Source of the DNA: a virus
Taxonomy: Duplodnaviria; Caudoviricetes
Direction: 5' to 3' (one strand)
IMG/VR virus record: IMGVR_UViG_3300042452_000698
Location: 1-64,000 of that record
DNA: 64,000 bases
Below, piece by piece: positions 46,001 to 63,587 of the stretch (positions are counted from its first letter, which is position 1; every line of letters starts with the position of its first letter). The translations under genes were made by a program, and so were the position numbers. The notes under the pieces are model-generated. The model saw nothing but the letters and a program-made list of their open reading frames with translations. It had not been told where the DNA came from and did not search any database.

Positions 46001-49000
46001 CAATGGTGTTTGTGTATCTTGGCACAAAATAATCTTTTAACATACCAGATGGTAATGTTAATTTGGTTTCTAGCGTCCAAGGAGACTTGTGTTTATCAAC
46101 GGGCCAAGTGTTTCCGCTTGGTCTAGCTTCTCTTCTGTATACAAATACTGCCCCGGCATCCTCTAGAATTCCACTAGTTAAATTATTACTCTCATCATAT
46201 TCATAGTATACTAAGTCATGTTTTGGTGCGCCAACAACCATTAGATCATTTTTAATATCTCCACACTTTCCGTATTCGTCTGTTGGCTGTATTTCATTAT
46301 TTAGTAAACTTATTCCAGAATATCCAACATAATCGTTAGATCCATATTCTACTTCTGTAAATTCAAATGGTAATTCTATCGGCCTATTACTACCAGTTTG
46401 TGCTTCTATAACTATTGAGTATGGTGACTGTGGTAATAAATTATCATATTTTCTAATACCGTAAAAATGCCCACTATATCCAACTTCTGTTCTAAATCCG
46501 CTGGTTTCTAAATTTGTATACGTATTTTGCGGTCTGAATATTCCACCGTCAACACAGCTTTCTGGTGGGCTATATAATATTGAATGAGATTCTACAATGT
46601 CTTCTGCACAATTGTTTTCGGTTCCACATTCGCCAAAACAATCTAAATCAACGCCTCTAATTTCATCGTTAGCATCTAAATATGATTCTTGATTGTCTAA
46701 AGTTGTTATATCTTTTCCAACATTCTCTGAATTCCAAGATATTGTTTCTTGCTTGTTTAAAAGCGGATTTGCTGGATAATTTATGGTATATAAAGATAAT
46801 CCACTAGCAATAAATTCTGCCGCAGGAACGCCATTTAAATATAGTGGTAACGCTGAATTTTGGGATAGCGGATCTTTGTAAAACCCATTAATAAATAAAT
46901 TTGTCGTTGCTGATGGAAATGAATTTACCAACTGTGGTATAGAATAAACATAAAAACCAATACTATTATTTAAATATTCTACTTGTGGTTTATTAAAAAC
47001 TGATAGCACTAACGAATTTAATGCTGATTGATCAGCAAGAAGATTTTGAGTAAACAGCGCTAAATTATTTTCTGCAAACTTATCTGTTCTTCCAGAAATA
47101 TATGTAAATAAAGCTTTATTATGTGAACCTACATTATGACAATATAGTGGAATATTATTATCATGGATATAAGCACCAAAAGAATAAAAAGATAATGCGC
47201 CAGACACAAGTGGAATTGCTTGTCCACTAGAGAACATATTTAACGAATCTACTACAAAATCAAAACCTTTTGTATGTAAATCTAGTGAAGATAGTGCTTT
47301 TAGTTCTCCGCTAGAAATAAGATTTATTGTATTATTTTCATTTAGTTCTTTTACTATAGCTTTAAGACCAACATTAATAGAATCAATTCTTATTTTTGAC
47401 TTGAAGGCTTGTCCAGAGGGATAAACCAAGTCATATTGTAAGAACATATCATCTATGTCTTTAGAATAAAACTTCTCATTAAATTCTGTAATATAGGTTT
47501 CAGAATCAAAACTTGCCCAAGGTTCTGAAGTATCAATTAAATCATTATATGTAAATTTACTTGATATTTTTTGTACGCATCCAGATGGTTGTAAATAATG
47601 AATAGCTCTATTAATAAGACCCCAATTAGTTTTACTTGGTCTATCAACCGGTTCCTTATTTTTAGTATATAAACTAACTATAAGTTTTGGACCGATTTTT
47701 CCATCTGACCAAGAAATATCATTATATGTGCTGTGTGTTATAACCGAATCAACAACAAGGGCGTCTTCCGTAAAATTATATCCTCTTGGAATAGTTTTAG
47801 ATATTCTTGGAACAACAGAATGAAATCTTGAAGTATCATCATTATCTTGAATATCACTTAAATAGAATCGTAAAAAGTCATTTTCTATTTGTGTGTGGTA
47901 AGCCAAGCCAGAAGCATAAATATTAGATGGTAATGGTAGATTAATTATTTCTGAATACGGCCTACCATCATGCGTCAAACTGTGGAAAATATAATCTTTG
48001 CCTTCTCTCCTAAGTAAATGATCAAAGTCTGGAGAAAACGCGCATGTATTAAAATCTCCTATTTTCCAAAAAGAAACATTTTCATCAACATATGAATATA
48101 AATCATTGTTTAAAAAGCTATTTACAGTGGTTTGTTTAAGTAGCCTATTTGGGTTGCTGCTAACTATATTTCCACTAGTTGATATTCCTATTTCATGAAT
48201 AAATAAAGCGTTGTCATAATTGCTATCACCAAAAACTAAATCTGAAGTAGAAGTTGGTAAGGATTGATTTAAAGATATTAGTAAATCGTTAGTATTGTTT
48301 GTTTCATTTTTATGATAAAGGTTGATTCTTGGCTCATTAGAATTATATGTTAATAATAGTGATAGCGGGTAGTTAACACTCGTAACATCTAGTAAATCAT
48401 CAAAAGAGCTTGCTCCAACAGATAAAACTAATTGCTCTGTAGAGTTATCAATATAGAGAGCAAAAGAAGAACCCTTTGATACTATAGTATTTTGAATGTC
48501 GTTATTGTAATCATAGTTTGGAGAAAATCTTACATATAACGCGGCGCCGCTAGAGAAAGATGTATTACTAAAACTTAGCGTTCCGCTGTTTCCACCAACT
48601 AAAATTGCTGAATCAAATGAGTCTGTAATTTTTTCGTGTAGAGGATCTCCAACCTGCGTCCAATCTATAGTAGTATAATCTGTATTATGAGTAAATAGCT
48701 GTTCATCTTTAAATCTCCATCCAATATTCTTTAAAACATTTAGTGAATTACTAAAATATCCACTATTAGAATAGTTATCTGATATTACAAAATTTCCACT
48801 TATATTTGTAAAATCATAATATCCATTTAGGAATGGCTGATCAGCCTCTGGATTAAAGAATGAAAAATCAAACTCATTTGGATTATATGGGCCATAAACA
48901 ATATTTCCATCAACACCACGCCATCTTCTAGCATAATTTGTTTTTGATTCTAAACTAAATGCATTTGGAATATTTGTTATGTATGATCCAGAAGCATTAT

Positions 49001-51098
49001 CAAAAACAGGATCTAATAATTTTTTAGCAGATGGCTTTAATACTAAATCTCTAATTGCCATATCTTGTAATGATGGTCTTCCAAGGGTGTGCATCATTAT
49101 AGCATTCGATGGCTTGTACTTAATTATTAATTGTGCTGAAGATATAGCCGCTCCACTTGGTAGATTATAGATATCTAAATATAGATTTTCAAAATATGAA
49201 CTGTTATTATAGTTATTTGATATTTGAAGTGGAATTATATATTCTTCAAACGATGTTCCACTAATTATTGGTAATGTTGATAATTTATAGTGATCTCCAG
49301 CACTATTTGATACTAAATTAAATTCTTTATACTGGTCTTTATCGGAAATAGATTCTGATGATATTCCAAATTCATCGGTTTCAAAAAATCCAGAAGATAA
49401 TGGAATAACTCCAGTTCCTTCTTGAAGATTTTGTAAAAATGCATCTAATTTAGGAGTAATATTTAGAATTTTATCGTCACTCCAGCCAACGATATCTAGA
49501 GCATAATCTCTTGTTCCGGGAGATTTTTTAGCAATAACTTTAAGACTTATTTCATCTACTATGAAGAAATTGTCTTGTGCTTGAACAGCTTTTAGCGTGG
49601 CGGCTTTATAAGAATCGTTGAACGATGGGCTAAAGTATCCATCGGAAAGTGAGTCTACGGTTTCTGGCGGTTTATGACTAAACCTTAATGATAATCTTCC
49701 ACTGTCATTTTCTGGGTCTGTATATACTAATTTAATATAATTTAGTGGTGTTGTATCTTGTAGTTTAGATGTTAATACTCTACTTCCAGAAACAGATGTA
49801 TTTCTTGCAAAATTACCAAGATCATCTAAAGAAGACTCCCAAACGCCTTGGGACTGTGGATAAATACCTAGATCTGTATCACTGGTTATTACCTCTACAG
49901 GAAGTATATTTCTTATTAATCTATTTCCTATGGCGTTTACTTCTGTGTAGAATCTTAGATAATTGCTATTTATAGCACCATCACCGCCGCTATTAGCAAT
50001 TTCTATAGCAGATATTCTTATAGAATTAGTTGGATTTAAGGAAAAATTTTGAACCTGTGTTGATAGTGGAGATCCGTCAAAAGATAAATAACTATTATTA
50101 GAAGAATTAACAAAATCTAGTTTACAAGTATCTTCATAGCCCTTATCAAACCCTTGAGAAAATGGATCATCCAAACAATCTATTGCAAAATCTATATTTA
50201 AGGTATAGCCACTTGGCTCATTCATTAATGGGAAATTAGTATCCCAAGTATTTAGTTCAAGATTATTTATTTCTGGTTCTGAAATATATGTTGCAAAGTT
50301 TACATAGTCAGTATTATAATCAGCATCTCCCCTAAGAATAATATCTTTATATTTAATGATTAAGTTGCCAGAAGGATCTTCTAGCTTAATATTATGAAGT
50401 CTATATTGTGGAGGAATATCTGATGAATAGTTTGAAACTGGCGCGGCTGCGCGAATAAAAAGAAAACTTTCTTCTATGCTATTTGGCCTTGTGACCTCAA
50501 ATTTATATCTAAAATCTCCCTTCGTAAGAATAGAAGATGGTTGAATATATGACTGTCTTTCGTCTGAGATTATTGAACCATTGCGAGTTGGTGTAACATA
50601 ATCTCCAACGTAAACGCCCTCATCAATATTACTATATAGATTTGTGCTATTTAGGTTCTTATCTACAAAATAGCTATTATTTAAAGATGTTACTATATCT
50701 CTAATTGGGAATAGCTTTTGTGTTGATAAAAATCCGTTTAAGCCTTTTATTTTTTCTGTGTTACCACCAAACTTATCAACTTTTACATTCTTAAAAGAAC
50801 TAACAGAAGTATTTTTAGAAGATAATGATAAAGAACATTTGGTCTTTGATCTAATTGCTCCAATACCAATATTTTTAGATATTAGATTTGCATTTAGTTT
50901 TGTTTTTGGCAAAACGTTTGCTTTGGCTTCATTTTTAGAAACTATTAATACTGATTTAGATACTTTTGGAATTATATTACCAACAAAGTTTACTTTTGAT
51001 CTAATGTCATGCGAAACATTGATTCTACACTTAAGTCCAGAAGTAGACTTAATTTTAGATTCTTTTTTTGTTTCACAGTTTAAGCAAAATGTAGCCAT
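40041..51098 (-). CDS. Giant tail adhesin-like protein (3685 aa): FG-GAP propeller, vWA-like MIDAS motif, LamG-like and GldG/DUF4350-like segments
   Basis: Seven FG...GAP blades, IYVDNTRSM, two W-L-S-x-G-x-[RK]-x-L repeats, LxLY repeats. Confidence 0.7.
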   Translation of the reverse strand: MATFCLNCETKKESKIKSTSGLKCRINVSHDIRSKVNFVGNIIPKVSKSVLIVSKNEAKANVLPKTKLNANLISKNIGIGAIRSKTKCSLSLSSKNTSVSSFKNVKVDKFGGNTEKIKGLNGFLSTQKLFPIRDIVTSLNNSYFVDKNLNSTNLYSNIDEGVYVGDYVTPTRNGSIISDERQSYIQPSSILTKGDFRYKFEVTRPNSIEESFLFIRAAAPVSNYSSDIPPQYRLHNIKLEDPSGNLIIKYKDIILRGDADYNTDYVNFATYISEPEINNLELNTWDTNFPLMNEPSGYTLNIDFAIDCLDDPFSQGFDKGYEDTCKLDFVNSSNNSYLSFDGSPLSTQVQNFSLNPTNSIRISAIEIANSGGDGAINSNYLRFYTEVNAIGNRLIRNILPVEVITSDTDLGIYPQSQGVWESSLDDLGNFARNTSVSGSRVLTSKLQDTTPLNYIKLVYTDPENDSGRLSLRFSHKPPETVDSLSDGYFSPSFNDSYKAATLKAVQAQDNFFIVDEISLKVIAKKSPGTRDYALDIVGWSDDKILNITPKLDAFLQNLQEGTGVIPLSSGFFETDEFGISSESISDKDQYKEFNLVSNSAGDHYKLSTLPIISGTSFEEYIIPLQISNNYNNSSYFENLYLDIYNLPSGAAISSAQLIIKYKPSNAIMMHTLGRPSLQDMAIRDLVLKPSAKKLLDPVFDNASGSYITNIPNAFSLESKTNYARRWRGVDGNIVYGPYNPNEFDFSFFNPEADQPFLNGYYDFTNISGNFVISDNYSNSGYFSNSLNVLKNIGWRFKDEQLFTHNTDYTTIDWTQVGDPLHEKITDSFDSAILVGGNSGTLSFSNTSFSSGAALYVRFSPNYDYNNDIQNTIVSKGSSFALYIDNSTEQLVLSVGASSFDDLLDVTSVNYPLSLLLTYNSNEPRINLYHKNETNNTNDLLISLNQSLPTSTSDLVFGDSNYDNALFIHEIGISTSGNIVSSNPNRLLKQTTVNSFLNNDLYSYVDENVSFWKIGDFNTCAFSPDFDHLLRREGKDYIFHSLTHDGRPYSEIINLPLPSNIYASGLAYHTQIENDFLRFYLSDIQDNDDTSRFHSVVPRISKTIPRGYNFTEDALVVDSVITHSTYNDISWSDGKIGPKLIVSLYTKNKEPVDRPSKTNWGLINRAIHYLQPSGCVQKISSKFTYNDLIDTSEPWASFDSETYITEFNEKFYSKDIDDMFLQYDLVYPSGQAFKSKIRIDSINVGLKAIVKELNENNTINLISSGELKALSSLDLHTKGFDFVVDSLNMFSSGQAIPLVSGALSFYSFGAYIHDNNIPLYCHNVGSHNKALFTYISGRTDKFAENNLALFTQNLLADQSALNSLVLSVFNKPQVEYLNNSIGFYVYSIPQLVNSFPSATTNLFINGFYKDPLSQNSALPLYLNGVPAAEFIASGLSLYTINYPANPLLNKQETISWNSENVGKDITTLDNQESYLDANDEIRGVDLDCFGECGTENNCAEDIVESHSILYSPPESCVDGGIFRPQNTYTNLETSGFRTEVGYSGHFYGIRKYDNLLPQSPYSIVIEAQTGSNRPIELPFEFTEVEYGSNDYVGYSGISLLNNEIQPTDEYGKCGDIKNDLMVVGAPKHDLVYYEYDESNNLTSGILEDAGAVFVYRREARPSGNTWPVDKHKSPWTLETKLTLPSGMLKDYFVPRYTNTIGNIPLPLPITERLWQVGQEGREFGHSVAIGVNSGIKSFEENQREIIVVGGPNSKWTPRPLEELQTSGVQVGLLIFTDEFTPNVTRRSPTGQAYVDNYTSILSKIQNKDLIFKYFSDPPVSFDVKIIICEPLSDYSNRIPLESPQTDFITKRTISRNQGFITAERNEKILSGIKEAFHSAFPYDSTKINNNIPAMLGIYVDNTRSMRNAIDGQVSSLNNFINYYQSYSFASGLRDFYNTPSSGAVVRHVSAPSHWIDAANSMLDYVLDTGRLLQDNQVRFFTSGVGQDAFNENLSQFNYPPDSGGKVFIFEKESGYWNLVQEIKSSNITYSHPDRFGHAIAISDNTEVIAIGSPYISDSCQVFEYKQSEKDRIFNEISSWVAHKSSITGGVGRYATLISDYYSWVAKYGYDYSNKILYSKLTSTEKFEARKYLNIQEYKQVLSYNQGNFVGKSKWNFIIDEFAPTARLGYSAAVNDDGSIVAFGAPTDSLNQWDDARVYYKNLGYLNTEDTSLNTNIITPAWRSNVNAGAVRIFESRKYYPHNKVIEYGKFGNLQKELGLPEDSGHFNYLPTIFQDNNFEVTPFSQVNIPQDAGLAFIITPSVDALSNEVLDNIVEWLSLGDRNLVLVGNDPTWESSGVYSESNEIVNKILEELDSRMKLFPARNQLEACLDNESLGIPTFVDNSTPTYISKTNVNIHGVADIRTNFDNIPLLKDKVIYSSCSSENVDLGNEVVVTLPTANTKCELPIKNAGDLRAQWYKYCIGCGGRREKYAVNIPFYFSTFTPLCNCDEEETKKSLASSRVNGKNQEPIPILAAAKKQIETIVIPSSGPVYGTRPTYSTETYTSNSLFVTFDENDVGESTSFIWSIDDQVDAEYLIGSNNIIQPQPQDGTSGILQILASPFSEQTFGKKQVSDKAYFSVEQSLYNSKIIAIAGLFTESESVLYNAGLDKSFANDENINFYVNMVSKSSDGGSRIKFLSSQWVGRSSFTDAYPDSQLHGVFLDNGNFIEYSDTIYSYDDVCWIANPKNIPNDIELTAIKSWLSIGNKKLIVTHDSSIEQMNIANSLFDLLGSDIESLYLPVDDVYVRIRLNQENYIRLNPNHPISIGYNDAITSIQQINFTGLNSIEFISFKLNNNIIPIAYYGGPVYDTEVITNGYWSINSQAKVSFPAIAGSGYKIFINTKSDNEYESQTLNVSTQNVSISPKIPYPTFPIDIYQDFASTRSVSFNAQVKENKNTIDFYITSYVPTISNVDGYIPKTPKLISISGVPIGIKENIATSTYSVNVQTGYENYLISNGEPERIVTREFFDFIKNKNTQYCQEDCLDSGFDDQLIADGPVIVAQEQEHITSFNAGYNRSRITLIADSSLVQGRYLGDDQGRIPLSTLNFISSLYPQTNFASANAGRQFNQQTKIVAPERGSPQKYLSLVSNSGLSNKFAGSIPSKQPNLFNSIESHYDPRYVIYPLDPWDISDDEISIESKKNAARQAFMLQETNFGAKSKFTEVVDGTLYKDINIYGGLPQLLKDKGYDHIDFNKLPSGYPGDLFGYSIALHNNKLIVGAPFTAFSDEIINPWQQYIDGGSSSGIELSYNGGAGSVFVFEKTFSGSGLHGTLTPWEFIQKLRPSSVNIGQDIYDGNGSGVLGTHNYGSGYLANNSIITDQFGLSVDIDSDIIVVGAPGHDFNNKYINTSGSFIRKEFNEEFYIPQRIVTDLGSSGIRLQNSGNALLNNGSIFTFENKIIDWSTKDKKWTFVEKIVPVSGCDNQNFGSIVSIDRLFRTDADYTVFAGSNSGIYSSGSSYSYDIMLRQPPPSIPSPEAFIQAKVFGERDSAGNPNVFISVQNSGENNQKYFASGTIFSDNKGQIFIEVSGQDPAIKGFISHRPFIKSIDGQYTFGTPNNGNITLYTNGSNFINQNLHIFTSVDDKAIVYNSLGLYNSAIIDFATNLPSGFILYTNCPDPVEINNSGLTLYASGIGSQSDKLNLRIRGKA

Positions 51099-54000
51099 TT
51101 ATATAACGCCTGTCATATTTCCTTGTAGTCTTCCGCCCTCTACTACTTTGTAATTTTTGATCTTTTCCCCAACTTCTGTTAAAATCTCTTTTTTAATTTG
51201 TCCAGCTAAACTTGATAAGAATGTTCCACCAGACAAGTTAACGTTTATGTTAGTAGTATCTAATTTAATTTGGAATTTTGTATTTTGTAAATCCTTAATA
51301 TTCTTGGTAAGATTTGTATTGAAATTATTTAGTCCATTAATTAGGTCTGATACTAGGGCTGGGTCTATGCTAACTCCTTGGCCGGTTGCAACTCCACCGT
51401 TTTGCAAATACTGTACTTTTCCACCATTATTGTAATATCTAACTGATCCACCCTTAGAAAGACCGGCAGAGTTTGCTCCACTATTAATAGCTCTTAATAA
51501 CTGTAAATTATTTCCTCTATTTACAGCAGCACGATTAACAACAAATTCTCCGGGAGTTAACATTGCTGGAACGGTATCGGTTCCGCGAGGCACAAACATT
51601 CCATTATTTGCATACACGGTTCCACCTCTATACATTCCAGCAGCTATTCTTCCTCTTTGTTCTATGTCTTGTATAATAAATTCACCCTTTTGCACATTAA
51701 TTGAAGCTGTATTTAGCTCCATTTGTGCCATATCAACTCCAGCTTGACCAGTTTCCGCTAATACTCCACCAAGTTCTCTAATTGTTGCTCGTCTAGCTTC
51801 TTCTTCTGGTGTTGTTCCAGCAAGTGATCTTGCTGCTCCAGCATCAGTCACTCCTCTGGCTCCTAATGCGGCGCCAGCGGCCATTTCTAATAATCCTCCG
51901 GGACCACCAAGCTGCATTCCAAATATTTCTTGGACGCCAGCGGCTTGTTGTCTTTGTATGTTTTCAAATGCTCCAGCTAGTGCGGTCGCTCCAAATTGAT
52001 TAATAAGATCTTGATTGCCGGTTGATATTGCTGCTGTAGCTCCTACCGCAGCCTGTTGCTCAAAGAACTTATCAATATCACCTTTAATTAATGATTCTAG
52101 AGACTCTTTTTCTAGTCTATTCTTTTCTTGAACAATCTTTAGTTCTTCTTGTTCTAGCTTGATTAATGATCTTATAGTATCAACTTGTTGCTTATATGCT
52201 TGTTGTAAATCTTTTTGGTTTTCTGCTGCTTGTACTCCACCAACACCCTCTAAGCCACCTTCCGTTCTTGATCTTTGCTCAAATCTTGCTGCTCCAGCAA
52301 CCATCTCTACATTTCTTCTTCTTAATTCTGCTGCGCTTCCAGTTCTTAAACTAGATAGTCCAACTCTATCTCCTTGAGCATTAGATTTACCTAATATTAC
52401 TGATCTTCTTTCAGCTTCGCTGACAGCCCTACCTCCAGCACCAGCTTGAATTTCTCTTCCTTCTAGATATAAATCTAAAGCCTCTTGTTGTGCTTGAACA
52501 AGGTTTCTTTCAGCGTCTATTCTTGTTTTAGTTAGATTTATTAGTACTTGTTCTGCTTTTTGTCTTTCTTGTGAAATTTTTACTATATCTTCAAGTTGCT
52601 TCTTACCAGCTTCAGTAATTTGATCACCAAAAGCAGAAAAATCACCAGTACTAATGAACTTATCTATATCTTCTGGATTTAATTTTAGATTATCTAATAT
52701 AGATGTAAGATTTTTCTTTGCATCGCCCTCAAGACCAGAAGTTAACTCATCAATAAGAGCTTTCCTAACATCATCTGCGCTGTCAGCGTTTGACTGTCCA
52801 GCTTGTAGTCTTGCTTGTAGGTCAGATCTAACTTTAGAAAAAGACTTATTATAATTTTGTTGAACCTTAATAAATCCTTCTGTGTTTGCTCTAAACTTTT
52901 CTGGATTAACTCCCATTTTTTCTAAATTGCTTGCAACATCATCTATTGCGGCCTTGATATCTGCTGGATTCATTGCTTGGGCTGCGCTTCCAACAGCCTG
53001 AGATAAAAATTCTGCATTAGCAACAAATGTGTTTCCACCAACTTCTAATCCGGCAGCAAACCTGTCCATGCTAGCACTCATTGCGGTTGCTGTTGCGGTT
53101 GGCCCCCTTAAACCAAGATTCATGGCATCAAATGCAGCTTTAGCTCTAGCAACCTCTTTTTCGAGATTTTTCATCTCGTCATCAACTTGCCTTATTTCTT
53201 CTCTTAGTTGCTTTAATGCTTCTTCTGCTGCCTTTGCTCCCTCTTCATCTCCAGCACGACCTAACCTATTTACATCGCTGCTTAAAGTTTGTAATCTAGC
53301 TAATTTGTCTCCAGAAGTTCCAACTCCCAGTGCTTCATTTCTAATTTCTTCTGCTGTTTTTCCTCTAGCAAAACCAGATCTTATTGTAGCTGATCTTGCT
53401 GGAGATTCTAGAGCAAATGCTTCTGATTGGAATTTAGAAGCTTGACGAATTTGTTCTGCGCTTTGTTTTCCAAGGCGCTCGTTTCTTTGTGAAACGGATT
53501 CAACACCTCCAAAACTCAAGAATGATAAAATATTTCTTCCAACACCGCTAACTCCACCGCCTCTATTTTCAAGATTTTTTGTTGCAAAATCACTAGCGCG
53601 TTTTTCTTGATTGTTAGCTTCGTCTGTAGCCGCTCTAATTCTAGATAAAGCTTCTGACGCTGTTATTGTTCCATTTTCAAAATCCTGCATTGCACTGGTT
53701 GCTGTTTTTTGTGCTTGCTCAAGAGCTTTTTGCGTTTTAACAGCGCCAGCCTGAGATGCGGCCAGTGCCTCAATACTATTTAAAGTATTACCACCAAAGA
53801 ATGTTCCAAGACCAATTGCAAATTTTTTAATTAATGGACCAACAACTGGAAGTTCACTTCCTAATTTCAACAATCCAGCCGTTGCCGCCCCAACAGCAAT
53901 TCCATACGGTCCAAAAAATGCGCTCGCGGCTATAATCGATGAACCAAGACTATTTACAGCATCTGCCCCAGCGGCCTCTACAGCGTTTGATTTAGCTTTC

Positions 54001-57000
54001 TGAATATTGCCTTCTTGAATAGCTTTATTTGCTTTGTTTTGATAGTCAATGAACGAATCAACGACAGAAGTTATTCCAGTAAAAGCTAAACCTACACCTA
54101 TTGCTATACCATTAAGTTTAGTTAGATTAGCTAAACCTTTACCAATAAGTCCACCAGCTTGTGCAGATGTAGAAGCTCCACTACCAATTACAGCCTTTGA
54201 AGGATTTTTTAATGTAGCACTAATACCTTTTGTAAATTGCGATCCAGTATTTCCGGCAAAACTCGCAGCAGACGATAATCCTTTACTAACTAATCCGGCT
54301 CCGGGTATTCTAGATAAAGCTTGACCACCAACACTTAAAGATTTACCAAGAAATCCTCCAGCCTTTTCTCCGACGCTCTTTGAACTACTAGCTATTCTAC
54401 TAAAAGTAACATTTGGCATATTTAATCCAGCACTAAACCCTCTACCTATTTGAGATTGATTTATAGATGACCCAATTGATCCTAATCTATTTCCAATAGA
54501 ACTTGCGCTTCTATTAACAAAAGATCCAGCCCTAAAAGCGCCTTTACCAAGCGGTCCTCCACCGCCAATTTGACCGCCGCCAGTTAATCCTCTTGTGGCA
54601 TTTTGTAATATACCACCTATGCTTTTCGGTCCAGTTCCAAATAAGTCTTTTATATTTTTAAGACTAAGGCTAACACCAAAAGCTTCTAGAGCAAAGCCAA
54701 CTGTTGTTATTGTAGAAACTAAACCAAGTAATTCATGAGCCATTCTGGTTGCGGCGCTAGCATTTTCATCAAGCGCAGGCAAGAAGCTTTGTAATAATCC
54801 AACCGTCATAGATGCCGCGAACATTTTATTAGCAGCAACATTTTCTACAAGAGATTTTTTCTGTTGATCATTGGTTTGAGCGACTTGTTGCGTTGTGGTA
54901 TTTGATGCTTGTGTTGTTTTTACAAGAGCCTGTTGAGCATTCGATAGATTTCTAGCTTGTCTACTTAGTGTGTCAAATGGTATATAATCTCCACCAGCAG
55001 CAGACATAACTGGACCAGAACCGCTATATGCTGGTGCAGCGCCGCCGTTATTAAATCTATGTACTACTCCACCCTTAGCATATTTGCCAATTTTATTCAT
55101 TCTGTTTAATGAACCATAACCAATGCTCTTAGCTGCACTTCTATTAATAACAAACTCTCCGGGTGTTAATAGTGCTGGTACAGTATCTGTTCCAACTCCT
55201 CCTCCAGTAGCAAATTTCCTCATTGCTCTTGGGCCTTTACCCCTAAGAGCGTCCATTGCGGGTTGTTTGCTTCCACCTTGGGTAAATATCATATTACCAA
55301 GTGGTATACCAAACAATTGACTTAGATATTCAGCAACTCCGGGTACTCTTTGTGATTTACTAATAATAGATAGTTTGCCCGGCTGTAATTGTCCAGACTT
55401 AATTGCTGTTTGAAGTTCTCTTCCGAATGCTGTTAATGGTGCAGATTTAATGTCACGAAGTCTAGCTGTTGGATCGCGGAAGTATTTATTTAACGCAGCA
55501 GATTGTTGACCAGAAGTTTTTGCTCGTCCATAAGCTTGATCACCAATGGTTCGCTTTAAAGTTCTATCTATGTCAATTGCGCCACCGCCAGCTTTTATTA
55601 ATGCCGCAATAGCAGAGCTTGGACGAGGCATCATTGTTCCGGTTGCATTAACTATATCATCAATTAGCGGTGCTTTTGCTAAACCTCCAAACGCAAATTT
55701 TGATATCATTCCGCCAAAATGTTTTTTCTTACTAAAAGAACTCTTTAGTACTAGTGATTCTCTTTTTTTCTTTTCGTTTTCCGTTTCTGGTCTAACAAGA
55801 TTATTTTGAACTGCTTCAAAAGCCAAAGCGTTAGATGCTTTTGTTTGAAATTTAGATGGAATAGATTGTGCTAAAGAAGATTTTGCATCTACATATTTTG
55901 AAGTTAAATTTTTATAGTCATCTTTTAAAACGTTTGATAAACCAGTTTCAAAGTCGAAAGCTCTTTGCGGTTCTGTTGAAAATGGTGAACCAGATAATAC
56001 TTTAAGCGTATCTTCAAATAAATTTCCTCTACTAGCATCATTAATACCAATTAAGAATCTATTAATATCGTCTGGTGGTATGCGAGTCCTTGAGCCAGAA
56101 AGCCCTAAATCTAAAGCTAAAGCCTGTGCGGAGTTTTCAGCAACTTTTACAAGATTATCATCAATAATTCTACTAAATGAATTGTATGTCTGTCCAGATA
56201 GCCCTTCTCTTTGTAGAGTAAAACTTTTTTGAGATTTAATTGGATAATTATCTGATAATCTTAAGTTTTTAGGCAATTTATTTTCTATGTCTTGTCTTGA
56301 AACTTTGACTGAATTTGATGAATCAAATCCAACATTTTCTAAAATAGCTGCTCCTATTGTATTTTCATTAATTAATCCGCCATTAGCATAGCGATTTTCA
56401 TTCATCGCTGCTAAATTACTAGCACCAAGTCTATTAACGCTGCTTTTTCTTATAACAAACTCTCCCGGCTGTAACATTGCTGGAACAGTATCCCTATTTC
56501 CAGAACCCGGAACCATTCCACCCCTTGCAAATTTATGTACTTTACCACCCTTATTGAATGTTCTTCCAGATGTTAGACCGCCACCAATACCTCCAATAAA
56601 ACTACCAATTCCTCTTACTAATCTAACGGCGGTTAATGCTGCTAATAATGGTAACAGAGGTTTAACGGCATCTGCAACTTTGATAAGAGCAGATGCTAGT
56701 GTTAATGCAGTATTTGCCATTATCTGAAATGTGCTGGTTTCAGTAATGCTTCTTATTAACGCCAAGAACTCTTCTTTTACTTTTGTTATTCTAATTGCTA
56801 AGGCTTGTTGTGCCGTTGCGGCGTCTTGCGTTAAACTATTTCCAGCTTTATTTGCAACATTAAGTGCCTGTTGAGCAACAGAAAACTGTTGTAATAATGG
56901 TAATACTTTACCAATTTGTCGGAATCCACCAAGTTCTTCAGCAATTCTAATAAATGTAATATCGCCTTCACCAAGACCAGCAAGTGCGCCACTTAATCTT

Positions 57001-57902
57001 CTAACGGCTTCGAATGGCCCAACGAATTTACCCTCTAGATCAACAAGCTCAACACCAAACTGTTTTAAGAATTCAATTGTTTTTGGGCGTTGAATACGAG
57101 TAAATATTGTTCTTAAACCCGTACCAATACTTTCTGCACTTTCTCGCGTTGTTGCTCTTACGCTTGTAAATAATGCTAGTAGTTCATTCAAGTCTCCACC
57201 GGATGATTTAAAAACACCACCAGTTCGTCTAATAACATCAATTAAGTCACTAGCTTCTACGGCGAAAGCTCCAGCAACAGCATTAATTGATCCAAGCTGA
57301 CTTTCAAGAGCGTCAACCCCTTTTCCAAACTGAGCAAGAATAGCAATAGCTCCCTCTGCCGTTTCTGATATACTATCAAAGTTCGGAGCGAGAGCGGCTT
57401 TGGCTAATGAATTAAGTGCTTTTTTAGTATCGTCAGCAGAAAGACCAGCTTGAGCCAATACAGTTGTTACTTCAAGTAAGTCACCAGAAGAAACACCTAA
57501 ACTAGTAGAAAGATTGGTAATTTCATTGGTTAAATCTCTAAGACCACCAATGCTTTTACCAGTTACCTGAGAAATTTTGATTAACTGTCTTTCAAAGTCA
57601 ATGGACGTTTGGACAGCATCAGCAAGGGTACTGGTAAATAGTCCAACAGCCCTTGTTGCTATAGAAAAAGCAGCAAAGCGCCTAACAGATACAGCAAATG
57701 CACGACCCATCCTTTCCGCAGCCGAAGTTGCGTTATTGGTGTTACGTGTTAATTGCTGTATCTGTCTTTGAGCTTGTTGAACGCCTTGAACCTGTACATT
57801 AACCTGTACATTATTTAATTGATTCTGTATTTGGCGAACAACTTGAGCTACATTATTTGGCGCTTGTAGTTGTAATTGAGCGGTAAGAACAAATCTTGAC
57901 AT
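51099..57902 (-). CDS. Tail tape measure protein (2267 aa)
   Basis: TP901-type core (FERQLIKISQVTG...LAQAG...NAVAGAFAV...IGTGLRTIFTR), long Ala/Gly/Gln helical regions, DTVPAMLxPGEFV motifs; follows the tail tube and chaperones. Confidence 0.93.
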   Translation of the reverse strand: MSRFVLTAQLQLQAPNNVAQVVRQIQNQLNNVQVNVQVQGVQQAQRQIQQLTRNTNNATSAAERMGRAFAVSVRRFAAFSIATRAVGLFTSTLADAVQTSIDFERQLIKISQVTGKSIGGLRDLTNEITNLSTSLGVSSGDLLEVTTVLAQAGLSADDTKKALNSLAKAALAPNFDSISETAEGAIAILAQFGKGVDALESQLGSINAVAGAFAVEASDLIDVIRRTGGVFKSSGGDLNELLALFTSVRATTRESAESIGTGLRTIFTRIQRPKTIEFLKQFGVELVDLEGKFVGPFEAVRRLSGALAGLGEGDITFIRIAEELGGFRQIGKVLPLLQQFSVAQQALNVANKAGNSLTQDAATAQQALAIRITKVKEEFLALIRSITETSTFQIMANTALTLASALIKVADAVKPLLPLLAALTAVRLVRGIGSFIGGIGGGLTSGRTFNKGGKVHKFARGGMVPGSGNRDTVPAMLQPGEFVIRKSSVNRLGASNLAAMNENRYANGGLINENTIGAAILENVGFDSSNSVKVSRQDIENKLPKNLRLSDNYPIKSQKSFTLQREGLSGQTYNSFSRIIDDNLVKVAENSAQALALDLGLSGSRTRIPPDDINRFLIGINDASRGNLFEDTLKVLSGSPFSTEPQRAFDFETGLSNVLKDDYKNLTSKYVDAKSSLAQSIPSKFQTKASNALAFEAVQNNLVRPETENEKKKRESLVLKSSFSKKKHFGGMISKFAFGGLAKAPLIDDIVNATGTMMPRPSSAIAALIKAGGGAIDIDRTLKRTIGDQAYGRAKTSGQQSAALNKYFRDPTARLRDIKSAPLTAFGRELQTAIKSGQLQPGKLSIISKSQRVPGVAEYLSQLFGIPLGNMIFTQGGSKQPAMDALRGKGPRAMRKFATGGGVGTDTVPALLTPGEFVINRSAAKSIGYGSLNRMNKIGKYAKGGVVHRFNNGGAAPAYSGSGPVMSAAGGDYIPFDTLSRQARNLSNAQQALVKTTQASNTTTQQVAQTNDQQKKSLVENVAANKMFAASMTVGLLQSFLPALDENASAATRMAHELLGLVSTITTVGFALEAFGVSLSLKNIKDLFGTGPKSIGGILQNATRGLTGGGQIGGGGPLGKGAFRAGSFVNRSASSIGNRLGSIGSSINQSQIGRGFSAGLNMPNVTFSRIASSSKSVGEKAGGFLGKSLSVGGQALSRIPGAGLVSKGLSSAASFAGNTGSQFTKGISATLKNPSKAVIGSGASTSAQAGGLIGKGLANLTKLNGIAIGVGLAFTGITSVVDSFIDYQNKANKAIQEGNIQKAKSNAVEAAGADAVNSLGSSIIAASAFFGPYGIAVGAATAGLLKLGSELPVVGPLIKKFAIGLGTFFGGNTLNSIEALAASQAGAVKTQKALEQAQKTATSAMQDFENGTITASEALSRIRAATDEANNQEKRASDFATKNLENRGGGVSGVGRNILSFLSFGGVESVSQRNERLGKQSAEQIRQASKFQSEAFALESPARSATIRSGFARGKTAEEIRNEALGVGTSGDKLARLQTLSSDVNRLGRAGDEEGAKAAEEALKQLREEIRQVDDEMKNLEKEVARAKAAFDAMNLGLRGPTATATAMSASMDRFAAGLEVGGNTFVANAEFLSQAVGSAAQAMNPADIKAAIDDVASNLEKMGVNPEKFRANTEGFIKVQQNYNKSFSKVRSDLQARLQAGQSNADSADDVRKALIDELTSGLEGDAKKNLTSILDNLKLNPEDIDKFISTGDFSAFGDQITEAGKKQLEDIVKISQERQKAEQVLINLTKTRIDAERNLVQAQQEALDLYLEGREIQAGAGGRAVSEAERRSVILGKSNAQGDRVGLSSLRTGSAAELRRRNVEMVAGAARFEQRSRTEGGLEGVGGVQAAENQKDLQQAYKQQVDTIRSLIKLEQEELKIVQEKNRLEKESLESLIKGDIDKFFEQQAAVGATAAISTGNQDLINQFGATALAGAFENIQRQQAAGVQEIFGMQLGGPGGLLEMAAGAALGARGVTDAGAARSLAGTTPEEEARRATIRELGGVLAETGQAGVDMAQMELNTASINVQKGEFIIQDIEQRGRIAAGMYRGGTVYANNGMFVPRGTDTVPAMLTPGEFVVNRAAVNRGNNLQLLRAINSGANSAGLSKGGSVRYYNNGGKVQYLQNGGVATGQGVSIDPALVSDLINGLNNFNTNLTKNIKDLQNTKFQIKLDTTNINVNLSGGTFLSSLAGQIKKEILTEVGEKIKNYKVVEGGRLQGNMTGVI
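51543..56492 (-). repeat. Three DTVPA(M/L)L(T/Q)PGEF copies and about 12 [KR][FY]AxGG-type motifs within the tape measure
   Basis: Copies at 56457-56492, 55152-55187 and 51543-51578; GG motifs include FNKGG, KFARGG, RYANGG, KHFGG, KFAFGG, KFATGG, KYAKGG, RFNNGG, YYNNGG, YLQNGG. Confidence 0.9.
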
Positions 57903-57933: not shown

Positions 57934-58809
57934 TCAGTTACTTTCCGAGACTTTTGCCTTTTTTGGTCTTCCTACTTTACTATCCTCTGATTGTGATGAT
58001 TCCTCATTTTCTGTAACATATGTCACAGTTGGTATATAGTTACCAAATTCGTCTAGGGGATTACCATCTTTATCTACACGTTTTCCTTCTTCATTAATAT
58101 AATACCCATTTTTATCAATTTTTCTTCCTTCAAGATCTACGGTTTCTCCCTTGTTATTTACTAGGGATAAATCTTCATTGACAAAGTTAAACATTTTAAG
58201 GAACTTATTCTCTGGTAATTTAGCCTCAAAATCCTTGTCAACAGAATAAAGCATTGATGCTAGAGCCGAGGCAGCAGCAAATCCAAGATCGCTGTCAGCA
58301 TTTTCTCTATATTCTTCTAAAGAATTATATAATTTAGAGCCATTTTCACGAAATGTACAGTTGGCAACCAAGAAATCAAACCTAGCATTATCAGAAATTG
58401 CCTCCGCTGTATTTTGCTCTAAGCTCATTTTTTCAGCTATTAAGTCTCTTAATTCATTTCTCTTGACTCTCATTTTAATAGCTATTTCTTTTCCTTCAGA
58501 AGCTTTTAGCTTTTTATGGCCAGCACTTCCGACATATAGGGACTTTTCTAGATCACTAATTTCTTGAATAATTTTTCTTTGTTCTTCATCCTTTCCATCG
58601 TCCCATATTCCCTGCTCTTTCATGAACTTTTCAAGTTCTTTCTTGGTCATAATTCCATCACGAACACAATCGGTCCAAGCTTTGGCGCCAACTCTTTGTG
58701 CTTGTGAAAGAACAGCGTTATTGGGCTTCTTAATTAGAAGTGTGACCTTTTCTTCTTTGTCACCATTATTTACTGTTACTTCTACGGTCTTTTCCTTGTC
58801 TTTAATCAT
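57934..58809 (-). CDS. Tail assembly chaperone-like protein (paralog B)
   Basis: Directly upstream of the tape measure; strong RBS AAGGAGG; C-terminal DxxG repeats. Confidence 0.6.
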   Translation of the reverse strand: MIKDKEKTVEVTVNNGDKEEKVTLLIKKPNNAVLSQAQRVGAKAWTDCVRDGIMTKKELEKFMKEQGIWDDGKDEEQRKIIQEISDLEKSLYVGSAGHKKLKASEGKEIAIKMRVKRNELRDLIAEKMSLEQNTAEAISDNARFDFLVANCTFRENGSKLYNSLEEYRENADSDLGFAAASALASMLYSVDKDFEAKLPENKFLKMFNFVNEDLSLVNNKGETVDLEGRKIDKNGYYINEEGKRVDKDGNPLDEFGNYIPTVTYVTENEESSQSEDSKVGRPKKAKVSESN

Positions 58810-58821
58810 GTTATCCTCCTT

Positions 58822-59151
58822 TTAATTCTTTGGTTGTTGTATTACTGGCATTTTAATAGAATATTTTAACCACTCTACATCATATTGAGATAATTCTGCA
58901 TCAATATTTCTAGCTTGATTATTTCCTTTGTCTAGAATTTCAGACCTTATTTTTTCATATAGTGCCTTGAAAGCCTTTTTTTGATCAGAAGATAATGAAT
59001 TATTACTATCATCCCATAAAAATCCAAAGTTTTCTTCTACGCTACTTAGTGCGCCAATCATTGTGGTCTGAATTTTTTTTCTTAATATTTTGCTAAGTCT
59101 ATCTTTTGAATCTGCTTTATATTTTTCTTCTCTTATTTTTTTATAATCCAT
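58822..59151 (-). CDS. Hypothetical helical protein
   Basis: 109 aa, TAATG overlap with the upstream gene. Confidence 0.7.
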   Translation of the reverse strand: MDYKKIREEKYKADSKDRLSKILRKKIQTTMIGALSSVEENFGFLWDDSNNSLSSDQKKAFKALYEKIRSEILDKGNNQARNIDAELSQYDVEWLKYSIKMPVIQQPKN

Positions 59152-60200
59152 TATCGTCCTCCTCTTACTTTATTCCTAAAGGCATTTGTTTGGTCCATTT
59201 GAATTTGTAATCTTTGGTCTGGCAAATTGTGATCTTGTACTATGCCAGCTTGTTTAATAAAATTTTCCCTTTGTTTTTTAATCATCATAGAATGAACGCT
59301 ATTTGCTTTATTAATTTGTTCTGCGTGTTCATCGCTTTGTGCTACTACGAATACCTCGCTAGCATTTTTAATCTTCTCATTTTTTACTAAACCGTCTACT
59401 TCTTTTTCTGCGTTTTCTTTCTCTCGTTTTTGGGCCTGTATTATAAACCATCCATCTAACATATCGTCATCTTCTATAACATCTTTACTTGGGCAGTCCA
59501 TTGATTCTTGTATGTTGTCATACATTTGCGACCATATAATTAGATTTTTTTGATTATATGTTAGTTCAGAATTTTCCTCATTCATGAAAAGTTTTATTTT
59601 AGCATTATCACGTATTGTCCACAAAGATTTCCAAGGCTCATTTCTAGCTAAATCTCTTGAAATAGAATCGGCCAAAAAAGAAGATTGCCATTCATCTATT
59701 ATATAAGACAAAGAGACTTGAGCAAAATCATATAAGATATTATCTTTATAAGTTGTATTTTTGATTAGCCAAGAAATTTTGTCTGCTGTTGCTATTCCCT
59801 CTCTTGTATTTTGCATGTATGAATTTTTTTTATTAACATAATTTATAAGTTGCTTTTCAATTGCTCTAATATATAATCTTATCTGTGAGGCTTTTTTCTT
59901 ATCATTTCTAGCATTGTATATTTCAACTTTAAGCTTTTCTATGTCTTTTTTTATGCTTTCTATTTTTTTATCGTCGTGTGGCGTCCACAAATCTTGCTCA
60001 AACATCCATTCAAGCATTTCATCTTCGGACATTATTTCGTCAATATATGCCTGCTTATAACTTTCATCATATATTTCACAAGCCTCTATGCATTGGTCTA
60101 TTGTTGGCGGTTTTACTATAAATTTTTGATTTTCTATATTTATATGCGTGTTTCCAGATCGTATCTTAAAAATTAAAAGCTCCCGCTCATGTTGTTTCAT
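59151..60200 (-). CDS. Tail assembly chaperone-like protein (paralog A)
   Basis: Follows the tail tube; N-terminal ~160 aa align by eye with 57934-58809. Confidence 0.6.
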   Translation of the reverse strand: MKQHERELLIFKIRSGNTHINIENQKFIVKPPTIDQCIEACEIYDESYKQAYIDEIMSEDEMLEWMFEQDLWTPHDDKKIESIKKDIEKLKVEIYNARNDKKKASQIRLYIRAIEKQLINYVNKKNSYMQNTREGIATADKISWLIKNTTYKDNILYDFAQVSLSYIIDEWQSSFLADSISRDLARNEPWKSLWTIRDNAKIKLFMNEENSELTYNQKNLIIWSQMYDNIQESMDCPSKDVIEDDDMLDGWFIIQAQKREKENAEKEVDGLVKNEKIKNASEVFVVAQSDEHAEQINKANSVHSMMIKKQRENFIKQAGIVQDHNLPDQRLQIQMDQTNAFRNKVRGGR

Positions 60201-60223
60201 AAAAACCTCATGATGGGAGCTTT
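60176..60223 (-). promoter_or_regulatory. Long hairpin enclosing the RBS and start codon of 59151-60200
   Basis: Perfect 9-bp arms AAAGCTCCC/GGGAGCTTT, inner TCATG/CATGA and GTTT/AAAC stems; the AUG sits in the loop. Confidence 0.6.
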
Positions 60224-60266
60224 ATTGTGTTTCCTTTAAAATCCTAATAAATTATTGAATTATATA

Positions 60267-61466
60267 TCAATCTTCGCCATATCTTGCACCGGTTGGTTGT
60301 GGAATTGTGGCTGATCCGCTTAGTAGGTTTGCCGATGTTACACCGGTTCCAACAATTGGTGGAACAACAACAAGTTCATTGTAACCAACGAATGAATATG
60401 TTGATGTTGCATTTCCACCGCCAGCATCTCCACCGCCATATGTTACTGAAGAAAGTCTATTTTTCTTTCCTAGATAGAATCCAGTACCGTCAGTTAGTCT
60501 AACAAGTATTGGTTCTTCTCTAGTGTTATTGCCAGATGGATGTGGTGTATCTGATGGAACGGTTACAGCGAATAGTGCTGGATCACCCTCTTCCATAGCA
60601 TTGATGAAGTCTCCAGAAACTGAAATAACTTCAAATTCTGAAGTAACTTCTACTGGATAATTTGGAGCGCGATAGTATGGTAACTTTTTACCAAGCTCTA
60701 AAATATCTTCTCTTCCAAGATCTGTGCTAATTGTTATGCTTTGGATGTGTGCTTTTGGACATTTTTTCTCTGCGTCCCAATTATTTCCAACACCAGTTCC
60801 AGCAACGCCATAAATACTAGAAGGTATTATGCATTTTTGCATATCGATATTTTCGCGTCTTTGTATTCCACCAAGTTTTGTGGAAGAATCAAGATTTTGT
60901 GGATAATCTGGATTACCGGTTGTTGCATTTGGTCTTCTAAAATATAGTGATGTTGCTGCTGTAATACCAGTTGCTTCTGTATTTATTAACCATTGTTTGC
61001 TATTTCCAACTAATGTTACTGATTCGGTGCAATTTCCGTCTGTTGGTAGAGTATATGAAACATTATTTAAATACATCCCGCTCATGTATACTTGAACTGG
61101 AGCAACTCCGCTTACAGAATTTCTATCATCTGCATAAATTCCTAATACAACTGAGCATTTGTTTTTTGCTCTAGCAACTAGGGTATGATCATCTAATGCA
61201 TCAGAATAAGTGCCAGTTGGAAGTGTAGCTAATCTATATAGTAAGGGATAGCCATCGAGAACCTTTTCTATTGTTACTTCAATGTCTGGTACGCCTTCAA
61301 TATTTTCATAAATTTCAATCTGACCTAATTCAAAGACTTGTTCTAGATTAAATGTTGTGTTAATGCCAACGCTTTGTACACCGTGAACTTCTCTGAAACC
61401 ATTGGTTTCTAGTTCTGTACCCATAGCGACAGCTTGGCAGGCATAAAATATTCTATTATTTGCCAT
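60267..61466 (-). CDS. Major tail tube protein
   Basis: HGVQSVGINTTFNLEQVFELGQIEIY...IEVTIEK and ITISTDLGREDILELG...VEVTSEFE, a duplicated tube-like strand pattern; strong RBS AGGAG. Confidence 0.75.
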   Translation of the reverse strand: MANNRIFYACQAVAMGTELETNGFREVHGVQSVGINTTFNLEQVFELGQIEIYENIEGVPDIEVTIEKVLDGYPLLYRLATLPTGTYSDALDDHTLVARAKNKCSVVLGIYADDRNSVSGVAPVQVYMSGMYLNNVSYTLPTDGNCTESVTLVGNSKQWLINTEATGITAATSLYFRRPNATTGNPDYPQNLDSSTKLGGIQRRENIDMQKCIIPSSIYGVAGTGVGNNWDAEKKCPKAHIQSITISTDLGREDILELGKKLPYYRAPNYPVEVTSEFEVISVSGDFINAMEEGDPALFAVTVPSDTPHPSGNNTREEPILVRLTDGTGFYLGKKNRLSSVTYGGGDAGGGNATSTYSFVGYNELVVVPPIVGTGVTSANLLSGSATIPQPTGARYGED

Positions 61467-61506
61467 TATATTGTCTCTCCTGTTAAAGTGATAATGCTAT
61501 TTGTAT

Positions 61507-61518
61507 ATACACAAAATT
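61507..61518 (-). promoter_or_regulatory. Putative late-promoter motif AATTTTGTGTAT
   Basis: Upstream of the tail tube; matches 28987-28998. Confidence 0.5.
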
Positions 61519-62476
61519 ATATTGGATATTCTATTATTTCGACGGTTAACCTTACTATGCCAGCATAGAAATTGGAGTTAATTAAGTCCATAGCTTGAAC
61601 TGTAGAGTTTTTAAGCCACATTGAGCCTCTATTGTATTTAGTAATTAATTCTGGATATCTTAATGCTCCAGAAACCGGTGTGCCAAACGCATTGATTGGG
61701 AATTCATTGCCAGAAGCCACCAAATTACTATCAAACATATACACCTTTTTGTCGTTTTGTAAAGATATAATATCTACTAATTTATTTCTAGTAAATTCGT
61801 CTTCTGCTAAACAATGAAATATTATATCAGTATCTACGATTTGGCCTCCACCAAGCTGATAACCTTTTAGCGATCTTCTTGGTACAATTTCTACCGCAAC
61901 CGCTGGTAGCTGAACTCTGGATTCTGCTGGCAATGTAAATTCGTTATTTGCTGGCTGAAGATCTAGTGTTCTATACTGTATTTCTCTTAGCCACGGAAGA
62001 CTATTGGCATATATAATATTAACATATTTATAGCTATATTCGGCTTTTACTACTGATCCTGTTGGTATGGGATTATTAAAAATCACCCTACCATTGTAGT
62101 AATCTATTTTATACTCGTATTGTCCACTTGTCGTTGTTGGGTAAAATGAATTTCCAACGTAAATCCCGGATATTCCCGGTTTAGCGTTATTTGTTCCAAC
62201 TATCGGTTGTGGATTATATGATATGCCACTTTGCCAAACCCAATTCTTTCTAAATGATTCCCAGCATCGTCCAGCTTTATAATTAGAATCTTTAGATAGT
62301 TTTAATACGCTATAATTGCCACTTTCTGGAGAAAGCTCATCAAGAGTAACATTAAAATAGTTACCCTTTTCTAATAAAGCCCAATCTATAAATTCAACTA
62401 TATTGTCCTGTATCTCATTATTGAGAGTGGTGGAAAATATATTATCAAAGCCTTTTAGATTTAAATAGTCTGTCAT
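61517..62476 (-). CDS. Tail completion/terminator-like protein
   Basis: VQLPAVAVE...GYQLGGG...DIIFHCLAED..TRNKLVDII pattern; immediately upstream of the tube gene. Confidence 0.55.
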   Translation of the reverse strand: MTDYLNLKGFDNIFSTTLNNEIQDNIVEFIDWALLEKGNYFNVTLDELSPESGNYSVLKLSKDSNYKAGRCWESFRKNWVWQSGISYNPQPIVGTNNAKPGISGIYVGNSFYPTTTSGQYEYKIDYYNGRVIFNNPIPTGSVVKAEYSYKYVNIIYANSLPWLREIQYRTLDLQPANNEFTLPAESRVQLPAVAVEIVPRRSLKGYQLGGGQIVDTDIIFHCLAEDEFTRNKLVDIISLQNDKKVYMFDSNLVASGNEFPINAFGTPVSGALRYPELITKYNRGSMWLKNSTVQAMDLINSNFYAGIVRLTVEIIEYPI

Positions 62477-63105: not shown

Positions 63106-63587
63106 TATATTCTTTTCCACAAGCATGAAAAATATCTATTTTGTCTTAATCCCATTGGGGAATGTTCGCCGTATCTTTCAAATCTAAATTCTTTTAATTG
63201 TTTTATTCCTTCGTGTACAATAAGTGCTTTAGCTTGTAATACTTTTGTTAAATCAGACATAAAACCAATTGTTTGTATTGATCCGTCTGGAACCTTTATT
63301 GTGTCTGTAACATTCGTCCATTGTCTTGGATCCCAATAAACTTTTAACTTAATTGGTGTTAAAACTTCTACCTCTTTAATTATTTTTTGTGATCTTTCAT
63401 AGTCGCCACCACGATTTCTATGAGCATTAATAGATCCTTTTTCTGGTATGTTATTATTCGGAATAGTAACTATTTCTTCTATTTTATTAATAGAAACTAA
63501 TTGGCAGTTTACACCAAAAATATCAAAGGTTGAATCTATAACATCATAATATTTTTCGAAAACGCTTTCTGGAACTATAATTGGCAT
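63105..63587 (-). CDS. Head closure/stopper-like protein (putative)
   Basis: ATG at 63587 (TAATG overlap); beta-rich, LKVYWDP; position in the head-tail module. Confidence 0.5.
   Translation of the reverse strand: MPIIVPESVFEKYYDVIDSTFDIFGVNCQLVSINKIEEIVTIPNNNIPEKGSINAHRNRGGDYERSQKIIKEVEVLTPIKLKVYWDPRQWTNVTDTIKVPDGSIQTIGFMSDLTKVLQAKALIVHEGIKQLKEFRFERYGEHSPMGLRQNRYFSCLWKRI

Follow-up and report, generated by a model that had tools for sequence, protein, structure and literature searches.

Can the tape measure protein of a phage tail carry enzymes inside it, strung between conserved linkers, and deliver them to the host? The question is raised by a gene in positions 1 to 64,000 of the IMG/VR record IMGVR_UViG_3300042452_000698, a stretch of 64,000 nucleotides that we call the window and in whose coordinates all positions are given. 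An earlier note, made from the sequence of the window, had described the product of this gene as a tail tape measure protein (TMP) that works as a cassette carrier, with cargo domains inserted between GG motifs. The protein has 2267 residues. It matches PF10145 at residues 126-312 (E 9.6e-28, 97.9 bits against a cut-off of 33.2) and TIGR01760 at residues 89-425 (E 3e-31, 108.7 bits against a cut-off of 28.8), as well as several PHROG TMP families, and by these matches it is a TMP; the phage is an uncultured freshwater (lake) tailed phage. Between the first two of its three GG-rich modules lies a slot, which in the window holds two inserts, ins1 and ins2, and whose content differs among relatives, some of which carry an ADP-ribosyltransferase (ART) or a canonical HAD domain. 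We give a probability of roughly 55% to the reading that the slot domains form a series of enzymes which travel with the TMP and are ejected into the host at infection.

The layout described in the earlier note stood up to analysis. The motif DTVPA.L.PGEFV, said to be triplicated, occurs in exactly three copies, at residues 471, 906 and 2109 (nucleotides 56490, 55185 and 51576). Each copy is the center of a module of about 65 residues with the form [FY]AxGG..DTVPAxLxPGEFV..[FY]AxGG. The GG motifs, estimated at about 12, number precisely 12 and form four clusters (residues 452/461/508, 730/739, 900/944/953 and 2093/2151/2160/2169), the protein having 40 GG dipeptides in total. There are 8 copies of the strict form [FY][ANG]xGG, where 5000 shuffles gave 0.41 on average and never more than 4. 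Both GG-bracketed inserts are also where they had been placed (Table 1). When the copies of the window and of its relatives are taken together, the consensus of the module is GGxVxxFAxGGxVPxGTDTVPAMLTPGEFVxxKxSVxxxGxxNLxxMNxxxxxAxGG. The AlphaFold2 pLDDT of module 2 is low (39-56), and the GG module on its own is probably disordered rather than a self-standing folded domain. The nucleotide sequences of the three module cores are alike over only 39 nucleotides, at 85% identity. This is little for homologous recombination, and recombination at the GG motifs is thus unproven.

To describe the slot across the lineage, we used three sets of relatives: ten from IMG/VR found by whole-protein search, 91 proteins matching residues 505-900 among 1.84 billion representatives, and 80 of 229 IMG/VR loci picked by the N-terminal domain alone. 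Overall, some 170 metagenomic relatives share the skeleton of the protein, with a slot ranging from about 150 to 1200 residues, and more than 80 keep the TMP as one open reading frame. The order of the parts is the same in the ten IMG/VR relatives, i.e., N-terminal domain, module 1, slot, module 2, long region, module 3, and C-terminus. The N-terminal domain is 70-82% identical to the window copy in the eight relatives that were aligned. Iterated profiles revealed an ins1-family domain in nine of the ten and in most other relatives, sometimes twice, and ins2 in five of the ten. All 91 library matches carry ins1, ins2 or both, and nearly all are TMPs of 2000-5500 residues; the short ones look like fragments. 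Either insert may be present without the other in these proteins, the two follow no fixed order, and they lie between modules 1 and 2 in every case where both modules were detected. The 80 loci chosen by their N-terminal domain have the skeleton in every copy long enough to show it, with slots of 153-950 residues. Their commonest unit is ins1-like, while ins2 was found in about 12 loci and the ART in 2, along with several unassigned unit types.

The composition of individual slots shows which units may stand side by side. In one relative (L007) the order is an ins1-like domain, QKFAVGG, an ART-like domain, QQLAVGG, a canonical HAD domain (FDFDDTL .. VDD), QRFALGG, a unit that we named X3, and then module 2. 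The ART-like domain of this protein has the STS and ExE motifs and matches PF03496 (E 7e-5) with 22.7 bits, just below the cut-off of 23.4, and the ART of another TMP (P0151) is above this cut-off with 26.7 bits. Across 8 sequences of the ART unit, R60, S110-T-S112 and E183-x-E185 are invariant, a pattern of the R-S-E type. The unit is present in at least nine TMPs and absent from that of the window. X3 directly follows module 1 in some TMPs and directly precedes module 2 in others. Searches with the ART and HAD domains of L007 against PDB sequences gave no match, and a long profile (A4) matched TMPs only. The repertoire of the slot is small, with around six to ten unit families, and does not have the hyperdiversity of toxins.

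The units are separated in a regular way, each being bounded by [QKR][KR]FAxGG. The start of ins2 always comes right after xFAxGG, whether the upstream element is ins1, ART or module 1, and its end is GPRxxRxxRFAxGG; a junction of the form ..FGG-xIxKFAxGG precedes it irrespective of the upstream unit. Similarly, the core of module 2 may be preceded by ins2, an ins1-like domain, an ART or an unrelated unit, and similarity restarts at FAxGG each time. Per residue, [FYLMIW][AGNS]xGG is 15 times as frequent outside domain cores (96 occurrences) as within them (8), in agreement with the proposal that FAxGG motifs mark the boundaries of units. No conserved nucleophile follows the GG across the compared junctions, which makes self-cleavage unlikely.

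The structure of ins2 was predicted by AlphaFold2 from a 36-row alignment (residues 745-895) as a globular alpha/beta domain with a core pLDDT of 95-98. Its top Foldseek matches are almost all HAD phosphatases, including AphA and phosphoserine phosphatase (probability up to 0.94, E 0.02-0.1). VIA-align ranks a class C acid phosphatase first (Z 6.6, with a root-mean-square deviation of 3.7 across 124 residues), and CheY receivers come next with a Z of about 6. HAD motif I (DxDxT) is present as D777-I-D779-R-T781, invariant in the 36 sequences and placed after the strand at residues 774-776. Two other conserved residues, S850 after the strand at 844-848 and K879 at the N-terminus of a helix, would by their positions in the model correspond to motifs II and III. 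With moderate confidence, we regard ins2 as a divergent HAD-like phosphoryl-transfer domain. A weak lead for ins2, an ESM Atlas cluster in which 18% of the members carry P22 gp16 (score 0.92), had few shared features and was not used.

The model of ins1 (residues 505-735, also from 36 rows) has a mixed alpha/beta globular fold with a mean pLDDT of 90.6 and a pTM of 0.83. Invariant or near-invariant residues among the 36 sequences are G626, E630, F649-D650, D672-A-K674, S676 and K688. Among them E630, D650 and D672-A-K674 follow the E...D...(D/E)xK order, but the succession of secondary structures is only partly compatible with the alpha-beta-beta-beta-alpha-beta core of restriction endonuclease-like proteins, with no fold match at Z of 5 or above. 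A PD-(D/E)xK nuclease is a lead at the level of the motif only. Sequence searches of Pfam, NCBIfam and PHROGs gave no match for ins1, and ESM Atlas gave nothing usable. Fold searches (Foldseek against PDB and BFVD, and a wide VIA search) gave nothing above Z 4.6 and no nuclease among the matches listed, and exact peptide patterns retrieved no ins1 relatives from IMG/VR. Comparison of the window with one relative (L002) showed 24-44% identity in ins1, and 86-92% in module 1, ins2 and module 2. The ins1 family is near-universal in the lineage and diverges fast; it is not free cargo.

These results allow us to revise the cassette model. The description of the inserts as globular, non-helical and enzyme-like is in line with the predicted alpha/beta folds and their conserved acidic residues. 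The comparison of related TMPs that the earlier note had called for revealed differing content between conserved GG motifs, including the ART and the canonical HAD domain: the inserts vary among relatives, they are not helical, and the length of the slot varies independently of the conserved skeleton. Among the units, ins2 is optional, and the ART, HAD and X3 units are found in some relatives; the idea of free cargo does not hold for ins1, whose family occupies the slot of most relatives. The layout of MuF polymorphic toxins, with a variable toxin at the C-terminal tip, was not borne out: the variable units are internal (residues ~510-900 of 2267) and the C-terminus is conserved. The genes that neighbor the TMP gene are large tail genes.

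The GG module connects this protein to a well-studied TMP. Its profile matches residues 732-785 of lambda gpH (8iyk_H, E 2.4e-5), where the module reads FATGG..PAGIVHRGEFV..YATGG, preceded by a hydrophobic, Gly-rich stretch and followed by a C-terminal peptide that binds the tail tip. Module 3 and the C-terminus of the window's TMP have the same layout, and module 3 is placed relative to the C-terminus as the lambda module is. By sequence, the module of the window is homologous to the part of gpH that adjoins the cleavage region of that protein. The cut in gpH falls in the Gly-rich region just before the module, so that the module segment stays in gpHC, and neither the position of the cut nor the protease that makes it is known (PMC12617516). 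The other product, gpH*, forms a trans-envelope channel and has a reported mass of 78-79 kDa (PMC12617516). We computed 77.7-80.1 kDa for gpH fragments ending at residues 710-737, which places the lambda cut at the FATGG of the module or at most about 25 residues before it. The two proteins differ in that gpH has a single module and lacks embedded globular domains, whereas the TMP of the window has three modules and a slot and is 2.7 times longer. A side observation concerns the region before module 1: its hydrophobic stretch and Gly run (56550-56700, residues 405-450; GIGSFIGGIGGGLTSG..KFARGG) mirror gpH 680-737 (GIVGSIGSAIGGAVGGGASASGG..HFATGG), and the N-terminal 517 residues of the window's TMP resemble a complete lambda-style TMP end.

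The module has a broader distribution. Its profile matches the TMP of mycobacteriophage Douge (gp16) twice, internally, at residues 964-1027 and 1412-1458. A search with a 521-residue query found the module to be common in TMPs of cultured phages of Gordonia, Mycobacterium, Streptomyces, Ralstonia and cyanobacteria, while module 3 alone gave no tblastn match against phages at E 1e-3. In S-SCSM1 gp213 (Synechococcus phage; L091:2231-5083) and VWB gp47 (Streptomyces phage; L093:1682-6004), a GG module lies 50-110 residues upstream of a glucosaminidase and of an SLT domain, respectively. These two proteins, T5 pb2 and mycobacteriophage TMPs such as Douge gp16 are tape measure or tail-lumen proteins with an embedded enzyme domain, to which the enzyme-like inserts of the window's TMP compare. 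In T5 pb2, a cut after R1127 separates the muralytic domain (PMC10038345). Each of these proteins has one peptidoglycan hydrolase, whereas the lineage of the window strings together several units of non-muralytic families (HAD-like, ART, ins1 and X3) and reshuffles them.

What might such an array do? TMPs fill the lumen of the tail, with the C-terminus at the tip, and are expelled on infection. We propose, by analogy, that the TMP of the window would pass from the tail into the cell envelope before the DNA does, and the slot domains would therefore most likely be enzymes that the virion carries and hands over to the host when it infects. Between modules 1 and 2, the slot strings autonomous globular domains, each starting right after a [QKR][KR]FAxGG linker; these linkers would be flexible separators and possibly processing sites. 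The lineage may have turned the position occupied by a muralytic domain beside the module into a slot for several units, with ins1 as the core and optional enzymes around it, where relatives add, drop or reorder units. As an ADP-ribosyltransferase needs NAD+, some of the units would likely act in the cytoplasm.

Several observations weigh against the delivery of enzymes. For the phage of the window, the proposal is built on sequence and predicted structure. Its ins2 has no match in Pfam or NCBIfam, and its structural scores are middling, the Z of 6.6 being similar to those of CheY receivers. The canonical HAD motif IV is missing from ins2, with no conserved acid after K879 in the 36 sequences; the conserved D748-D749 at the N-terminal strand may replace it in a permuted arrangement. 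In hhalign, ins2 and the canonical HAD domain of L007 align at motif I only, with a probability of 0.4%. Being near-universal and without a recognized fold or family, ins1 may have a structural or assembly role instead of being an effector. Besides, three or six copies of folded domains of 150-220 residues may not fit the lumen of the tail tube unless they travel unfolded or in staggered fashion. The slot is also in the N-terminal, head-proximal third of the protein and would hence leave the tail late.

The units might instead serve to penetrate the envelope, an explanation that we find doubtful. They would degrade the cell wall or the membrane and include no intracellular effectors, ins1 being a novel muralytic or otherwise envelope-active domain and ins2 a periplasm-acting phosphatase on envelope phosphoesters. 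Muralytic domains are well documented in T5 pb2 and in the TMPs of mycobacteriophages, the module itself adjoins hydrolases in gp213 and gp47, a near-universal ins1 is what one might expect of a core penetration function, and the best structural matches of ins2 are periplasmic acid phosphatases of classes B and C. However, the fold searches of PDB and BFVD revealed no lysozyme, transglycosylase or peptidase fold or motif in ins1, and the need of the ART for NAD+ suggests that, in relatives with this unit, the target is cytoplasmic. We think it quite improbable that the inserts are non-catalytic elements for the structure or assembly of a very long tail (chaperone docking, tube initiation or the head-proximal end), with relaxed constraint producing the variability and the GG motifs acting as flexible hinges. 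The very fast divergence of ins1 between conserved flanks, its lack of a known fold, the predicted disorder of the modules, and a slot that changes length while the skeleton stays intact would all agree with this. Yet polar and acidic residues are invariant across divergent copies (E630, D650, D672 and K674 in ins1; D777, D779, T781, S850 and K879 in ins2), bona fide enzyme families occupy the slot of relatives (the ART with its R/STS/ExE residues and the canonical HAD domain), and the slot can shrink to about 155 residues, hence assembly as such does not require it.

Another explanation, which we entertain tentatively, takes the FAxGG motifs as proteolytic sites. Cuts at GG, made while the tail matures or once the protein has been ejected, would divide the TMP as a polyprotein, by the mechanism that turns gpH into gpH* and gpHC, and its enzyme domains would be freed; this overlaps with the delivery of enzymes and adds cleavage to it. 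The motif is found at every unit boundary, the homologous segment of gpH comes directly after the Gly-rich cut region with masses that agree, and cleavage of T5 pb2 does separate its enzyme domain. On the other hand, the lambda site and protease are unknown, T5 cuts after Arg and not GG, no protease was identified for the TMP of the window, and the junctions have no conserved nucleophile. A more far-reaching version seems rather unlikely to us: [QKR][KR]FAxGG would be the recognition site of a TMP-processing mechanism shared with lambda gpH, and giant TMPs would be polyproteins that measure the tail and are then cut into a channel part and free injected enzymes (ART, HAD-type phosphatases and the ins1 enzyme) for host takeover or anti-defense.

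Some elements of the favored reading, the ejected array of enzymes, are already known, namely hydrolases embedded in TMPs and ARTs delivered by virions. T4 Alt is a virion-packaged ADP-ribosyltransferase that enters the host with the DNA. In T4 Alt and the MuF toxins, as in the proposed slot, a scaffold of the virion carries an enzyme that enters the host with the DNA (including VIP2/C3-type ARTs and MuF-VIP2 fusions). There, the carrier is a head protein with the toxin at its C-terminal tip, whereas in the lineage of the window it is the tail TMP, with several internal units between conserved linkers. To our knowledge, TMPs are usually viewed as rulers or channel formers carrying at most a cell-wall hydrolase, and a limited search of the literature found no paper on a linker-delimited, reshuffled array of non-muralytic enzymes in a TMP. 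In this lineage of lake phages, which is widespread (at least 229 relatives in IMG/VR), the TMP has a defined slot for interchangeable enzyme domains, one of them an ADP-ribosyltransferase. Their delivery, if it occurs, would make the tail lumen a second route for injected effectors besides the head-packaged T4 Alt and MuF toxins. The homology of the boundary motif to the part of gpH adjoining a lambda cleavage unexplained for 40 years would provide a concrete sequence to examine for that cleavage, and the slot with its linkers could be a natural model for ways to load phage tails with proteins.

Table 1. Features of the tape measure gene, in window coordinates (aa, residues of the encoded protein).
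Feature	Position	Strand	Basis or remark
TMP gene	51099..57902	(-)	single open reading frame, 2267 aa; PF10145, TIGR01760, PHROG TMP families
TP901-type TMP domain, N-terminal, aa 1-445	56568..57902	(-)	ends in hydrophobic/Gly-rich stretch, aa 405-450
GG module 1, aa 451-517 (FNKGG, FARGG, DTVPAMLQPGEFV, YANGG)	56352..56552	(-)	motif search and module profile
ins1, aa 510-727, predicted globular alpha/beta, fold unrecognized	55722..56375	(-)	AlphaFold2 and conservation
Double GG junction HFGG-MISKFAFGG between ins1 and ins2, aa 727-740	55683..55724	(-)	motif search and relatives
ins2, aa 741-896, predicted HAD-like Rossmannoid domain	55215..55682	(-)	AlphaFold2, Foldseek, VIA, conservation
GG module 2, aa 893-954 (FATGG, DTVPALLTPGEFV, YAKGG, FNNGG)	55041..55226	(-)	motif search
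Gly/Ala/Ser-rich hydrophobic region, aa 955-1400	53703..55040	(-)	composition
Charged, Ala-rich region, aa 1401-2085	51648..53702	(-)	composition; coiled-coil Pfam matches weak
GG module 3, aa 2091-2160 (YRGG, DTVPAMLTPGEFV, SKGG, YNNGG)	51423..51632	(-)	motif search
C-terminal segment, aa 2171-2267	51102..51392	(-)	43-48% conserved in relatives

The hydrophobic region after module 2 has membrane-helix-like segments at residues 1058-1079 and 1263-1285; it is hypervariable across relatives, whose copies have gly-zipper Pfam matches. The charged, Ala-rich region that follows is, from its composition, presumed to be the helical ruler part. The C-terminal segment is presumed to be a plug that binds the tail tip, by analogy with lambda gpH, whose residues 818-849 are bound to gpI, and with the Douge TMP, whose residues 1658-1699 are bound to the hub.

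Directly downstream of the TMP gene (40041-51098, minus strand) is a gene encoding a protein of 3685 residues with FG-GAP repeats (PF14312, E 4.6e-20), presumably a giant distal tail or fiber protein. The seven open reading frames upstream (57934-63596, minus strand, 109-399 residues) had no PHROG match at E 0.001. By sequence, none of the genes for tube, chaperone and capsid could be recognized in this lineage. A megablast search with 20 kb against cultured phages gave no match, and no RNA run was listed as containing the stretch.

The phage is present at low depth in four lake metagenomes (runs X4-X7) and recurs from 2016 to 2024. In the lake samples, several co-occurring relatives are alike in the module cores and the N-terminal domain, at 85% nucleotide identity or more, and diverge at the module edges. 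Joints in the lake contigs were called at 85% likeness with short sides and may stem from such relatives; those at module edges are consistent with mosaicism and are no proof of recombination.

At 0.15 nm per residue, the 2267 residues of the TMP would project to a tail of 340 nm, or about 284 nm if the inserts do not count, which agrees with the arithmetic of the earlier note. The longer TMPs of the family (P0069, P0013 and P0006; up to 5499 residues) have extra GG modules every ~1000-1750 residues and seem to have grown by duplicating blocks made of a module and a hydrophobic/charged part. At the same rate, the implied tails of the longest ones would exceed 800 nm.

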